From NCBI RefSeq assembly GCF_055900595.2, contig NZ_CM148325.1: a stretch of DNA of 64,000 nt, one strand, 5' to 3'. Of this stretch, positions 45,007 through 59,540 are shown one piece after another. The number at the start of each line of letters is the position of its first letter. Position 1 is the first letter of the stretch. The translations under genes were made by a program, and so were the position numbers. Below the pieces are notes generated by a model. The model did not search any database, was not told the origin of the DNA, and worked only from the letters and a program-made list of their open reading frames with translations.

Positions 45007-46007
45007 GTATTGCCATTTCCTTAACCCCACCTGATAACCCTTAGCCCAATGGTGAGTGCGGAACTGTCAAACCCGCTCACCGGGCTGAGTTTCGATGTAG
45101 CAAGAATTATCTCCCTCCAGACCACCACGGAATATTCGGTAACACTGAAGGAACCTGTTTTTCACCATGTAGCCTTCGTTAATCGACACCTTTCTAAGAC
45201 TGTAAAGATGCTTAAGTGTTTTGACACATTATGATTATTAATAGTTGTAATAAATCATTGAGTAACAATTGATAGGTCAAAACATATAGGATAATTCTTA
45301 TGTGATCTGTATTTTGTGTAGTCTGGAAATTAGTAAAATTCCTGGAGATAATCAGAAAGGGAATTTCAAATAAGCATAATAATTTCCAGGGAAACTATTC
45401 GTCGATTTTAAGAAATGTCTGCTCAGGTATATCTACTGAGGGATAATGCTGGCTGTAACGCTGGTTAAAATAAATGCACAAAATAATCAAGATGTATATT
45501 TTAATTGACGAAAATAATTACTCACGGAATTATTAATAGGTGTTAAATAATACCGTTTAAATGTGATGTAAATCACAAATGTGACTGTAAAGAGGGGGCT
45601 GTAGATATAAATAAGAAGTACATGAGTGAATTTTAAATAGGGAAATAGTTTCTTGCTAAACAATTTATTGGTAATCAATCGCATGCGTCCTGGTTTGAAA
45701 CAGATTGCAGGTATTGTTACGCATAAAATCCATAGGGGGTATTATAATCAAGTAGTTAACAGTAATAGTGAAAAATAATTTCCTGAGAAATTAACTCTGC
45801 ATTCTAAAACGGCCAGTTTTCTGAAATTACCAGAAGACCGAATACATTCATGCCTGAAGAATGGATTAGAAGAAACGAGACGGAAATAGATCTATTTATC
45901 TCTGCGGAAATAATTTCTGCTGAAATTTTTTGCGGCTATTAAAAAGGTCAAACCGTCTGAGTAAATTTTATCCAGTTACAAATAAGCATTACCTCCAGTG
46001 TATTGGT

Positions 46008-46045
46008 AGCTGTTAAGCCAAGGGCGGTAGCGTACCTGAAGAGAT
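46008..46045 (+). promoter_or_regulatory. JUMPStart element containing ops (RfaH-dependent antitermination site)
   Basis: Sequence ggtagctgttaagccaagggcggtagcgta matches the JUMPStart consensus, including the ops core GGCGGTAGCGT at 46034-46044, ~20 bp upstream of the kpsM start. Confidence 0.75.
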
Positions 46046-46062
46046 TAGGATCACATCATCAA

Positions 46063-46839
46063 ATGGCAAGAAGTGGATTTGAAGTCCAGAAAGTCACCGT
46101 AGAGGCATTATTTCTACGAGAAATACGAACACGCTTTGGTAAGTTCCGTCTGGGATATTTGTGGGCGATTCTCGAACCCTCTGCGCATTTGCTGATACTG
46201 TTGGGCATTTTTGGTTACATTATGCACCGCACGATGCCAGACATCTCATTCCCGGTGTTTTTACTTAATGGCCTGATTCCCTTTTTTATCTTTAGCAGTA
46301 TCAGCAATCGTTCTGTAGGTGCTATTGAAGCGAATCAGGGGCTGTTTAATTATCGACCAGTAAAACCCATCGATACGATCATTGCGCGTGCATTGCTTGA
46401 GACACTGATTTACGTTACTGTTTATATATTGCTTATGCTTATCGTCTGGATGGCAGGCGAATATTTCGAAATAACAAACTTTTTACAACTTGTGCTTACC
46501 TGGAGTTTGTTAATCATTCTTTCATGTGGCGTTGGCTTAATATTCATGGTCGTTGGTAAAACCTTCCCTGAAATGCAAAAGGTCCTGCCGATACTGCTTA
46601 AGCCGCTGTATTTCATCTCCTGCATCATGTTCCCTCTACACTCGATTCCGAAGCAATACTGGTCATATCTACTCTGGAATCCATTAGTGCATGTCGTAGA
46701 GTTAAGCCGCGAGGCAGTTATGCCTGGCTATATCAGCGAAGGCGTGAGTCTGAACTACCTGGCAATGTTTACATTGATAACTCTGTTCATTGGTCTGGCG
46801 TTATACCGAACTCGTGAGGAGGCAATGCTGACATCATGA
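46063..46839 (+). CDS. kpsM: Capsule polysaccharide ABC exporter permease (ABC-2 type)
   Basis: Start at ATG 46063 (MARSGFEVQKVTVEALFLREIRTRFGKFRLGYLWAILEP...), 258 aa, six TM segments; closely resembles remembered KpsM N-terminus; the track's upstream extension would include the ops element. Confidence 0.9.
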   Translation: MARSGFEVQKVTVEALFLREIRTRFGKFRLGYLWAILEPSAHLLILLGIFGYIMHRTMPDISFPVFLLNGLIPFFIFSSISNRSVGAIEANQGLFNYRPVKPIDTIIARALLETLIYVTVYILLMLIVWMAGEYFEITNFLQLVLTWSLLIILSCGVGLIFMVVGKTFPEMQKVLPILLKPLYFISCIMFPLHSIPKQYWSYLLWNPLVHVVELSREAVMPGYISEGVSLNYLAMFTLITLFIGLALYRTREEAMLTS

Positions 46840-56394: not shown

Positions 56395-57968
56395 TTTTGA
56401 TTACTTCGGCTGCCTATATTTCTAATGAATTGAGAATTGAGTTTGGTGTTATCCCTCCATGTTTATTACCCATTGGTAATCGTACTTTATTAGAGTATCA
56501 AGCAGAATCAATTCGTAAAATGAGCAACGAGAAAATTTTTTTGACTTTGCCAGAGGATTACTGCCTATCAAAATTTGAAGAACGATTACTAGACTCGCTA
56601 AATATACGAGCCATCTACTTATCACCAAATTTAAGCTTAGGTGAGTCTATTTATCAAGCACTTGATAGTATAGGTGATTATACTTTTTCATCCGATGGTC
56701 TCAAGCTGTTACATGGTGATACTCTGATTAATGATTTAACTAATCAGAATGATATTATTGCTGTGGCACCATCTTCAGATGATTATTTTTGGGAAAAAGA
56801 AGAACATACATATGAGAACCTTGCCTGGTGCGGTTATTTTACATTTTCTATGCCTAATATATTTAAGGGCTTTTTAGAAGCATCAAGATTCAATTTTGTA
56901 CAAGCAGTTCGTTCTTATGATGAAGTAATCCACCTCAGTCGTATGAAACCAAAAAGCTGGGATGATCTAGGGCATTTAAATACTTATTTTATTTCTCGAT
57001 CTAACATTACTACTCAGAGAGCATTTAATGAAATGCGTATTCAACATGGGATGGTATGGAAGTCAAGCAAAAACAACAAAAAAATTCTTGCTGAAACGAA
57101 TTGGTATAAAAAAATCCCAGCCTTACTAAAATCTTTTACACCTCAGTTGATCGAAGACGGTATTTACAACAAAACTGGAAATTATTTCTACACATTAGAA
57201 TATTTACCATATATCCCATTAAATGAAATATTTGTTCACGGCAAAAATCCAGATTTTTTTTGGAGGAAAATTTTCAATATTATCAAAGAATACTTATTCA
57301 AAGCTAATAGTGCACTGACAAATATTAGTCAAAATAATATTGGTGAAAAAATAGCCATTGATTCTGAAGCGTTATATAGGACTAAAACATTTGTTAGACT
57401 CACAGAGTATGCCGTTGAGAATAATATATCAATCGATAAGCCTGTTTTTTACGATAACAGAAGATTACCTTCATTACACGATATAGCTAGTGATTGTATA
57501 GACCGAACTACTCAGCTACCAATTGTACCTTCAATTCTTCATGGGGATCTTTGCTTTAGTAATATTCTTTTCAACTCTCGTCTTAACAGCATTAAAGTGT
57601 TGGATCCTCGTGGTATAAGCCATAATGGTGAAGAGACCATTCTTGGTGACCAAAAATATGATCTGGCAAAACTCTGCCATTCAGTAATAGGGCTTTATGA
57701 TTATGTAATTTCCGGAAGATATCATTTAGATGGGGATCTATTTAATAATGCTGTTATATGGTTTGATATAGATACACGAATTAAGAGTATTCAGCAAGAA
57801 TTTTATGAATATAAATTTTTGTCTAATATTAGTGTTGGAGAAATAATGCCTCTTACTACTTTGCTATTTTTGTCTATGCTGCCCCTTCATAGCGATCGTC
57901 CGGATCGTCAAAAAGCTATGCTGTTTAATGCACTGCGGATATATTCTACATATGTTTACGATGTTTAA
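56391..57968 (+). CDS. Putative bifunctional nucleotidyltransferase / small-molecule kinase (APH/choline-kinase-like)
   Basis: 525 aa; C-terminal half has a Brenner-type phosphotransferase motif ILHGDLCFSNILFN followed by KVLDPRG (DFG-like position); N-terminal ~120 aa resemble an NTP-transferase fold. Assignment by motif only. Confidence 0.5.
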   Translation: MILITSAAYISNELRIEFGVIPPCLLPIGNRTLLEYQAESIRKMSNEKIFLTLPEDYCLSKFEERLLDSLNIRAIYLSPNLSLGESIYQALDSIGDYTFSSDGLKLLHGDTLINDLTNQNDIIAVAPSSDDYFWEKEEHTYENLAWCGYFTFSMPNIFKGFLEASRFNFVQAVRSYDEVIHLSRMKPKSWDDLGHLNTYFISRSNITTQRAFNEMRIQHGMVWKSSKNNKKILAETNWYKKIPALLKSFTPQLIEDGIYNKTGNYFYTLEYLPYIPLNEIFVHGKNPDFFWRKIFNIIKEYLFKANSALTNISQNNIGEKIAIDSEALYRTKTFVRLTEYAVENNISIDKPVFYDNRRLPSLHDIASDCIDRTTQLPIVPSILHGDLCFSNILFNSRLNSIKVLDPRGISHNGEETILGDQKYDLAKLCHSVIGLYDYVISGRYHLDGDLFNNAVIWFDIDTRIKSIQQEFYEYKFLSNISVGEIMPLTTLLFLSMLPLHSDRPDRQKAMLFNALRIYSTYVYDV

Positions 57969-58264
57969 TATAAACAATTTATATTATTTAAAATATTAAA
58001 TTGGGAATTGTGTTAATTTAATTTGTTAGTGTTTTATGATTTATTTAAATATTGGATTAGTGGCCTTTTCATCAAATTAACACATTAAATTTTTTGTATT
58101 CTGAATGTAATGGATTACTAACTTTAATAAAGCACTGCTATTATATATTTGTAATATACTGCAGTGCTTTTGTAAATTGCCCGTTTTAGTTCCAAGCATT
58201 TTTGATATACTGAAAAATAATGGTGTTGCCGATATTCCTCCTGCGTTATAATGTTCAGTGATTC

Positions 58265-59360
58265 ATGCGGGTGTTCAACTTATATTCTAACAACCAAGTT
58301 TCCGTGATTTCCCGTACGTCATTCAGCATTCTGAACAGATAAAAATCGAGTATTTCTGTACGGTATGTCAGGTTAAAATGTTCAATGAAAGCATTCAGCG
58401 TCGGTTTACTTGTTTGGATAAACTCCAGTTTTACTACGTGTTTCTCTGCTCATTCAGCCAGTGCCAGAAAGAGAAATTCCGGGTAGTTATCTACGCGAAG
58501 TATGATCGGATAGCTACAGTTTGCTGCGATACTGTCGGGTACACTTACCACTCGTGGAACTGGCAGACGCCGATCGATTTCAATCGATAACGTCTCACGG
58601 TTTTAAAGCTATCAACGATATTGAACGTGCGAAAACGGCGAACACAGACCAGAGCATCATGCATAAAATCGACAGATCATCGTAGGTTCAGCGTTTCCGG
58701 TATGTTAGTGGCGAGGGATTACGCACCGGCAACCGCTGTTTGCCCTTACGGCGAAAATTCAGCTTCAGCAGACAGTAAATTCGGTGGATCCATTTGTGAT
58801 TCCACTAATACCCCTGCTGCCGTAAAATCTGGAAAAGTTTCGGAAAATCGTATCGAAGATAACGCTCTGCCACCGCCGACAAGGCGACAATAATGAGTTC
58901 GTTACGCGTGGTATCTGGAGGATAAAGATAAACCGTTCTGCTCAGGTTCAGACTCCGGCAGGCCTGACTGATACTGAGTCCGATCGTCGTTATCAGGTGA
59001 GTGACCTGCTCACGCTTAAAGACTGGTTTTAAAGCTTTTTTCGATAACGTCTTTCAGTGCCCAGCTCTCCAGCCTCACTCCGGCAAACATCTGTTTGAGA
59101 CGGTGGTTCCCGTCTTTAAGCTCCTTGATCTTTTTAATATCAGAAGCCTCCATGCTGCCGTACTTGGACATTCAGTTGTAGTGGGTGGCTTCAGAAGTAC
59201 CAGCCTCCCGGCAGATATCTTTTAACAGTTCGTCCGGATTCAACCGTTTTAATGGCGGCCATGAGCTGACACTCAGTAAAACGGGCTTTACGCATAACGA
59301 TTACCTTCATCGGTAGATTGGGTATGCCGGAGGATCTCTAAATATGAATGACACAATTAT
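58265..59360 (-). mobile_element. Degenerate IS3-family insertion sequence remnant (IS407-group-like OrfA, disrupted OrfB)
   Basis: Minus-strand translation from 59295 gives MRKARFTECQLMAAIKTVESGRTVKDICREAGTSEATHYN*MSKYGSMEASDIKKIKELKDGNHRLKQMFA..., an IS3-family OrfA with an in-frame stop (TGA at the expected Trp); downstream transposase-like reading is broken by multiple stops and frameshifts. Boundaries approximate; terminal inverted repeats not identified. Confidence 0.6.
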
Positions 59361-59540
59361 GCAGGATACTTAAATAATAAGTTCACATTATGTGATACAC
59401 AGTGTTTCGCCGCTCTTGATAGTTTTATTGTTCAGGGAATATAGAATGGCATAATATTAACTTAGCAGTAATTAATTAGATGTATTTAAGATATAATATA
59501 TTGAAGGTAATTACAGTAACCATGACTTGTAATACTTATG

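Follow-up and report, generated by a model that had tools for sequence, protein, structure and literature searches.

An AT-rich block beside gspM that is very probably the serotype K52 cassette of a group 2 capsule locus in Escherichia coli

The closest described systems to the locus studied here are the group 2 (kps) capsule loci K1, K2 and K5 of Escherichia coli, which lie next to gspM, begin with a region 3 promoter (PR3) leader carrying an ops/JUMPstart element, and run from kpsM through their biosynthetic genes (neu, kfi) to kpsS-kpsC-kpsU. It is already established that the serotype-specific cassettes of such loci (region 2) have a low content of guanine plus cytosine (GC), are exchanged by recombination, are bound by H-NS and are counter-silenced by RfaH. 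H-NS footprints at the K5 promoters PR1 and PR3 and RfaH-dependent read-through into region 2 have been reported, and K1 and K5 capsule expression is temperature-regulated, on at 37 °C and off at 20 °C (PMC8960920). In strain CFT073 (K2 locus), chromatin immunoprecipitation sequencing of H-NS/StpA and RfaH revealed H-NS/StpA filaments over kps, and all eight loci with bound RfaH were H-NS/StpA-bound as well (PMC9765446). Here we analyse a 64,000-nucleotide stretch of contig NZ_CM148325.1 (assembly GCF_055900595.2; hereafter the window), in which an earlier note had marked positions 45007-59540, from the end of gspM to just before kpsS, as a sharp AT-rich island of capsule-specific genes. We conclude that this block is very probably region 2 of a group 2 locus of type K52, with the origin and expression set out below. 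Recent surveys place K52 with the most invasive capsule types of E. coli (PMC13171598), and the locus is therefore of medical interest; the AT-rich island as such adds nothing new, since every element of it is already in the capsule literature.

The locus occupies the site and has the frame of K1, K2 and K5. Group 2 loci are built of a variable region 2 bracketed by the conserved genes of region 1 (kpsFEDUCS) and region 3 (kpsMT). It lies between the gsp type II secretion genes (gspM ends at 45006) and kpsSCU; kpsM, kpsS, kpsC and kpsU are in the window, and kpsD, kpsE and kpsF follow in a matching genome. The genes kpsS, kpsC and kpsU are on the strand opposite to the region 2 genes. The leader is the one shared by these loci, for which regulation by H-NS, SlyA and RfaH has been published, and window positions 44000-46842 are 96% identical to the K5 locus of strain Nissle 1917. 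Unlike K1, K2 and K5, however, the locus has wholly different biosynthetic genes, a kpsT that lies in the specific block rather than adjoining kpsM, and a KpsS that is 21 residues longer. Region 2 consists of six biosynthetic genes with kpsT embedded among them, followed by a pseudogene of an insertion sequence (IS) of the IS3 family. Genes were annotated with Pfam and from the RefSeq annotation of a matching genome of sequence type 69 (ST69, O15:H18), which has 2 mismatches to the window over the first 45 kb. The features are as follows.

45131-45985, plus strand: region 3 (PR3) promoter and long 5' leader, GC 0.318, common to group 2 loci and not K52-specific
45996-46034, plus strand: JUMPstart RNA motif (Rfam RF01707, 58.5 bits where the gathering score is 35, E = 1.8e-11)
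46023-46034, plus strand: ops element GGCGGTAGCGTA (12 nt) within JUMPstart, an exact match; RfaH loading site, 29 nt upstream of the kpsM ATG
46063-46839, plus strand: kpsM, ABC-2 permease of the capsule exporter, GC 0.434 (Pfam ABC2_membrane, E = 2e-15)
46843-59605: K52-specific segment by homology, with its AT-rich core at 46836-58445
46939-47931, plus strand: 330-residue family 2 glycosyltransferase (K52_13, same length), GC 0.303 (Pfam Glyco_tranf_2_2, E = 2e-23)
47951-51697, plus strand: 1248-residue TagF-like glycerophosphotransferase-family protein (K52_12, same length), GC 0.280
51869-52549, plus strand: kpsT, ABC ATPase, GC 0.322, third-position GC 0.20
52769-55258, plus strand: 829-residue protein with a hexapeptide-repeat acyltransferase domain at its N-terminus (K52_10), GC 0.325
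55296-56042, plus strand: 248-residue BcbE-like protein of the nucleotide-diphospho-sugar transferase fold (K52_9), GC 0.289
56023-56394, plus strand: 123-residue HAD-family capsule biosynthesis phosphatase (K52_8), GC 0.309
56391-57968, plus strand: 525-residue protein, nucleotidyltransferase-like at the N-terminus and kinase-like at the C-terminus by InterPro entries (K52_7, EcbG/BcbG-like), GC 0.329
58186-59295, minus strand: IS3-family transposase pseudogene (RefSeq: frameshifted; internal stop), GC 0.454
59541-60773, minus strand: kpsS, residues 1-389 98% identical to K5 KpsS

The names K52_7 to K52_13 are those of the kTYPr entries for K52, in which kpsT is the eleventh gene (PMC13171606). 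The product lengths and order in the window, 525/123/248/829/kpsT/1248/330, equal those entries exactly, a match of order and length and not an alignment of sequences. Clonal complex CC69 has K52 as its commonest K locus (Gladstone et al., PMC13171598), and one matching genome is named ST69. Set against the published K52 locus, which occurs in ST69/CC69 genomes, gene order and product lengths are identical; no difference was detected in this comparison of order and length.

Pfam and the RefSeq annotation concur on this gene content. The 1248-residue protein matches Pfam Glyphos_transf (E = 6e-41) over residues 464-821 and is likely the polymerase of the phosphate-containing polymer. The K52 polymer is reportedly fructose-containing, and the structure paper is said to be that of Hofmann et al. 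1985. The 829-residue protein has a weak Pfam Hexapep match, is called an acyltransferase in RefSeq, and corresponds to an InterPro LpxA-like entry for K52_10 (829 residues). In the kTYPr table K52_9 carries a PIRSF BcbE entry (2.8e-91), and K52_8 has a TIGR01689 entry (1.4e-60). At the conserved left end, KpsM has 99% amino-acid identity to KpsM of other K types.

The deviation from the group 2 frame is the position of kpsT inside region 2, where it is parted from kpsM by two biosynthetic genes; this kpsM/kpsT rearrangement in K52 has already been noted (PMC13171606). The allele is divergent: compared with K5 KpsT and kpsT, identity is 78% in amino acids and 75% in nucleotides, and its GC is 0.32, against 0.394 for the canonical gene. 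Placement varies elsewhere too: kpsM and kpsT are adjacent in Pantoea, and kpsT is at the far end, beside kpsS, in E. coli TUM12368.

The claim of a sharp drop in base composition was borne out, the fall being real and far larger than chance would give. GC amounts to 0.525 over 1-45006, 0.300 over 46840-58185 and 0.501 over 59541-64000. Followed along the window in 1-kb steps, it stays at about 0.45-0.59 until 45 kb, falls to 0.28-0.41 for 45-60 kb and is back at 0.51-0.55 by 62 kb. In the block, sliding 1-kb windows have a mean of 0.301 (standard deviation 0.019, maximum 0.347); they do not overlap with those outside it (mean 0.523, standard deviation 0.040, minimum 0.401), and a likelihood model with two breakpoints is 693 log units better than one without any. 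At third codon positions, GC is 0.20-0.25 in the block versus 0.58 (standard deviation 0.056) across 39 flanking genes. The codons AAA, AAT, ATT and TTT, whose dominance had been pointed out, indeed make up 20-24% of block codons versus 10% in the flank. The codon-adaptation index, with the 39 flanking genes as reference, splits in the same way (0.51-0.54 in the block versus 0.675, standard deviation 0.045, in the flank); this restates the GC difference and adds no evidence.

Binary segmentation of GC divided the right-hand part of the window into the following pieces.

43001-45130: gsp genes, GC 0.549
45131-45985: leader, GC 0.318
45986-46835: kpsM segment, GC 0.438
46836-58445: type-specific AT-rich core, GC 0.302
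58446-61415: IS3 pseudogene, kpsS and the 3' part of kpsC, GC 0.448
61416-64000: remainder of kpsC, kpsU and the beginning of the gene after it (kpsD in the matching genome), GC 0.537

The earlier note was right to call kpsM intermediate; kpsS is intermediate as well (GC 0.449), a point absent from that note. The proposed extent, 45007-59540, holds as a sharp island but not in its details. The first ~125 bp just 3' of gspM (45007-45130) still have normal GC, the AT-rich run stops ~1.1 kb short of 59540, and the IS3 pseudogene, with its higher GC, interrupts it. Beyond the pseudogene there is a small AT-rich patch at ~59300-59605 (GC 0.30 at 59300-59600) that takes in the last 21 codons of kpsS. 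The interval is thus a mix of leader, kpsM, serotype-specific segment and IS3 remnant, that is, of conserved and type-specific DNA. Within the pseudogene there is a full-length Rfam match to isrN, an Hfq-binding small RNA (58888-59030, 123.7 bits), which is probably IS-derived sequence and not a capsule-related RNA.

Homology places the edges more precisely. In pairwise BLAST, homology to the K5 locus of Nissle 1917 ends at 46842 and restarts at 59606, and the composition edges coincide with these stop and restart points. The C-terminal 21-residue extension of KpsS is encoded by AT-rich, K52-specific DNA (59541-59603), and the right-hand cassette junction therefore lies inside kpsS. We found the entire interval at ~100% identity in 39 of 5,426 complete E. 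coli genomes; about 1,700 of the 5,426 match only 45007-46842 (leader plus kpsM, 95-99% identity), with the same left stop, and other cassettes fill the same slot in other strains. The description of the whole block as capsule-specific is therefore apt for 46843-59605 but not for the AT-rich leader at 45131-45985, which is group 2 DNA conserved across those ~1,700 genomes. The first ~430 bp after gspM (45007-45435) are also conserved, at ~91%, in strains with a group 3-type locus (kpsD-kpsM-kpsT), and these strains additionally carry a kpsM remnant and an IS5 at the gspM-adjacent site.

A transposon-like or integrase-mediated insertion was rejected. There are no tRNA genes in the 64-kb window, and no direct or inverted repeats flank 46843 and 59605, the short repeats reported there being low-complexity chance matches; the sole mobility-related sequence is the dead IS3 copy inside the segment. 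Nor did consensus matches to internal promoters and terminators exceed those in shuffled sequence (74 vs 81.6 and 7 vs 5.6, respectively).

The low GC does not identify where the cassette came from. We searched a 5.8-billion-protein database for homologues of the 525-residue protein. It occurs at 100% identity in E. coli only, and no homologue above 65% was found in this database outside E. coli. The next matches are at 65% and 64% (two contigs) and at 59% (Candidatus Pantoea formicae), followed by Pseudomonas at ~52% and by Bibersteinia, Actinobacillus, Pasteurella, Gallibacterium, Moraxella and Acinetobacter at ~47%. The KpsC encoded by one of the 64-65% contigs (L006) has 82-83% identity to the KpsC proteins of Yokenella and Phytobacter. 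Cassette gene order is the same in the 59-65% relatives wherever their contigs reach, and the proteins are 38-79% identical. Locus L005 has all six cassette genes, L007 (Candidatus Pantoea formicae) has the six plus an extra 309-residue gene, and L006 starts part-way through the TagF-like gene.

The shared order is glycosyltransferase (330 residues), TagF-like protein, acyltransferase, BcbE-like protein, HAD phosphatase and 525-residue protein, at a GC of 0.30-0.37, whereas the adjacent kpsS/C/D/E genes are at 0.47-0.55. Identities in L005 to L007 are 61-71% for the 248-residue protein, 73-79% for the phosphatase and 59-65% for the 525-residue protein, and homologues of the glycosyltransferase, 54-71% identical, stand at the same position in L002, L005 and L007. 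Where the contig includes kpsS and kpsC (L006 and L007), the cassette adjoins them, as in K52, and the two genes there have normal GC. These loci differ from K52 around kpsT: the 309-residue gene of Pantoea, where kpsT stays next to kpsM, is at the position that kpsT has in K52, and L005 has no gene there. Among Pasteurellaceae, the loci of Pasteurella multocida (bcb/ecb) and Bibersteinia trehalosi (ecbG) have in common with K52 the trio of BcbE-like protein, phosphatase and BcbG-like protein, TagF-like polymerases and a GC of ~0.30; they differ in the ~47% identity and in other accompanying genes, and there is no evidence of direct descent. The composition of the cassette and its neighbours by host is as follows.

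Candidatus Pantoea formicae: cassette GC 0.30-0.35, neighbouring genes 0.47-0.57
L006 (Yokenella/Phytobacter-like): cassette GC 0.33-0.37, neighbouring genes 0.48-0.54
Pseudomonas: cassette GC 0.42-0.46, neighbouring genes 0.64
Bibersteinia: cassette GC 0.28-0.31, neighbouring genes 0.40-0.45

In every host examined the cassette is 10-20 GC points under the adjacent genes, and in none does it have the composition of the surrounding genome. Low GC is a standing property of this cassette class. Since the cassettes are AT-rich islands in all hosts, low GC points to no donor genome and gives no date, and the assumption of an amelioration clock, that composition is that of the donor genome, fails here. 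By tetranucleotide signature, the comparison suggested for candidate donors, the K52 block is foreign with respect to its 45-kb flank (r = 0.36) and resembles the unrelated K5 region 2 (0.76) and the foreign cassettes (0.60-0.74). K5 also shows the composition pattern of the window, with kfiA-D at GC 0.31-0.36, kpsM at 0.45 and kpsS at 0.46.

The foreign origin claimed for the block is supported by its signature, by edges that are homology breakpoints and by its presence in only 39 of the 5,426 genomes. We propose that the cassette came from an AT-rich capsule-cassette pool shared among Gammaproteobacteria and would have been inserted into the conserved kps frame at a remote time, at 46842/46843 and 59605/59606. 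It would now move between E. coli lineages in much larger tracts, by homologous recombination in flanks of normal composition.

One such exchange can be located in the window.

43044-43045, in gspK, normal GC: left junction of a tract recently exchanged by recombination between E. coli strains

Another K52 genome, NZ_CP030768.1 (2017C-4173W12), differs from window positions 1-43,044 by 5-114 differences per kb (~2% overall, with the peak in sslE) and from positions 43,045-64,000 by 4 differences only. Over another 45 kb past kps, identity remains 99.94%, with the ST69 genome as a proxy for the window. This switch from 2-4% divergence to near identity, seen against other K52 genomes, therefore marks a recombination junction in gspK, 3.8 kb outside the AT-rich block. 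Seven complete K52 genomes share the left flank of the window and about 33 share the other flank; sslE is the gene in which the two flank types differ most, by up to 11% per kb. As part of a tract of at least 66 kb, the K52 locus either moves or remains where it is and has its neighbour exchanged. This tract is the sole demonstrably recent exchange, and its edge, in DNA of normal composition, is not at the edge of the island. The word "recent" in the earlier note is accordingly unsupported as a reading of low GC. As a lesson of method, low GC in this case neither identifies a donor nor dates the event, and the AT-rich interval mixes conserved with type-specific DNA.

Expression can be compared with the published loci. 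The leader holds the JUMPstart motif with the ops core GGCGGTAG at 46023, and the block is rich in the AT-rich DNA expected of an H-NS target: 89% of its 200-bp windows are at least 65% AT, versus 3% of those in the flank, and TpA steps number 109 per kb versus 41. The high-affinity H-NS motif TCGATAAATT shows a 2.5-6 fold enrichment, which is a consequence of AT content, and it was dropped as independent evidence. By analogy with K1, K2 and K5, transcription would start at PR3, ~740 bp upstream of kpsM, and RfaH would load at ops/JUMPstart just before kpsM and carry RNA polymerase through ~12 kb of AT-rich DNA presumably coated by H-NS/StpA; H-NS at PR1 and PR3 would shut the locus off at 20 °C. 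The prediction of a xenogeneic-silencing target thus seems a reasonable call as far as AT-rich DNA goes, but it is incomplete, as ops/JUMPstart would let RfaH override H-NS. With that element present, the expected state at 37 °C is counter-silenced transcription, not silence. The H-NS-silenced, RfaH-counter-silenced operons of CFT073 (kps, hly, rfa, wzx; PMC9765446) are likewise AT-rich and lineage-specific, with a single ops in the 5' leader; H-NS/StpA occupancy was measured in those operons, whereas the K52 locus is likened to them from its sequence. A second exact GGCGGTAG is found at 60221-60228 on the plus strand, inside kpsS and antisense to it, and two matches per window are within chance expectation (33 of 100 shuffles).

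Several points weigh against parts of this account. The K52 type rests on gene order, gene lengths and lineage rather than on alignment to the reference strain SSI 81998 (GCA_977947195), and the regulation described for K52 is extrapolated from K1, K2 and K5. In the recent exchange, the imported part could be either the K52 island or the left flank. The third-position GC of K52 (0.20-0.25) is close to that of the Pasteurellaceae homologues (0.17-0.22), which implies that the cassette has hardly been adjusted to the composition of E. coli, and an unsampled donor may have passed it to Enterobacterales in the geologically recent past.

Among other explanations, the one that survives best is that the AT-richness is not a leftover of transfer but is maintained in place, by selection (for example for temperature-dependent expression gated by H-NS/RfaH) or by the mutational bias of weakly expressed, H-NS-coated DNA. 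The GC offset is kept beside neighbours that span 0.40-0.64, and in Pseudomonas the cassette is shifted up (0.42-0.46) with the offset preserved; the joint binding of all eight RfaH-bound CFT073 loci by H-NS/StpA (PMC9765446) fits as well. The same pattern is, however, given by frequent exchange within an AT-rich pool with residence too short for compositional drift, and maintenance is compatible with a shared cassette pool rather than exclusive of it. As the explanation of this block we consider it unlikely. The wider statement that the low GC of capsule-specific cassettes is a maintained trait, not a passive scar of transfer, we put forward tentatively, as possible but doubtful; the deficit of 10-20 points is kept against neighbours in Pasteurellaceae (0.40-0.45), Enterobacterales (0.47-0.57) and Pseudomonas (0.64) while the proteins have diverged by 35-60%. 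If it were true, selection or a special mutational regime would be implied, and composition-based dating of "recent" transfer would be invalid for this gene class.

The reading of the earlier note is recent, direct uptake from a donor of low GC, for example one of the Pasteurellaceae, with GC as unadjusted donor composition. The sharp composition edges suit it, the trio of BcbE-like protein, phosphatase and BcbG-like protein is named after Pasteurella multocida genes, and the GC of K52 (0.28-0.33; third position 0.20-0.25) equals that of the Bibersteinia cassette (0.28-0.31; 0.17-0.22). Yet the Pasteurellaceae proteins are only ~47% identical, further away than the relatives in Enterobacterales (59-65%) and in Pseudomonas (~52%), and in the 5.8-billion-protein database no match outside E. 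coli is above 65%. The Bibersteinia cassette, moreover, is itself an AT-rich island 10-15 GC points under its neighbours, so its composition is not that of its genome, and the unrelated region 2 cassettes of E. coli (K5, TUM12368) have the same GC and a similar signature. We therefore reject the Pasteurellaceae as donor and regard the reading of a recent low-GC donor as quite improbable. AT-biased mutation is general in bacteria, but an origin of the low GC in place, by relaxed selection and such mutation on native E. coli genes with no transfer, is scarcely credible and is refuted by distribution and synteny: the block is found in 39 genomes only with other cassettes in its slot elsewhere, its sharp edges are homology breakpoints, its signature is unlike the flank, and its reading frames are intact with synteny conserved in other genera.

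A cassette drawn from a shared AT-rich pool remains the reading we prefer, and a few further features of the surroundings were recorded. Minor GC dips of 0.42, 0.43 and 0.45 occur at 17001-18000, 28001-29000 and 34001-35000, at the yghO upstream region, at the glcA-sslE intergenic region with the start of sslE, and at pppA-gspS2-gspC, respectively. Right of the window, downstream of kpsF (L012, 9559-24950), there are an AbiEii-type toxin pseudogene, a CbtA/YeeU toxin-antitoxin pair, Ag43 and a sialic-acid utilisation cluster, all within the near-identical tract of the K52 genomes. Finally, a cluster at 7239-17051, between yghS and yghO, is annotated with a serine palmitoyltransferase (spt), an acyl carrier protein, a fatty acyl-AMP ligase and an epimerase, together with second copies of lptF/lptG and a lipopolysaccharide biosynthesis protein; two genes of this cluster are pseudogenes in the other K52 genome.

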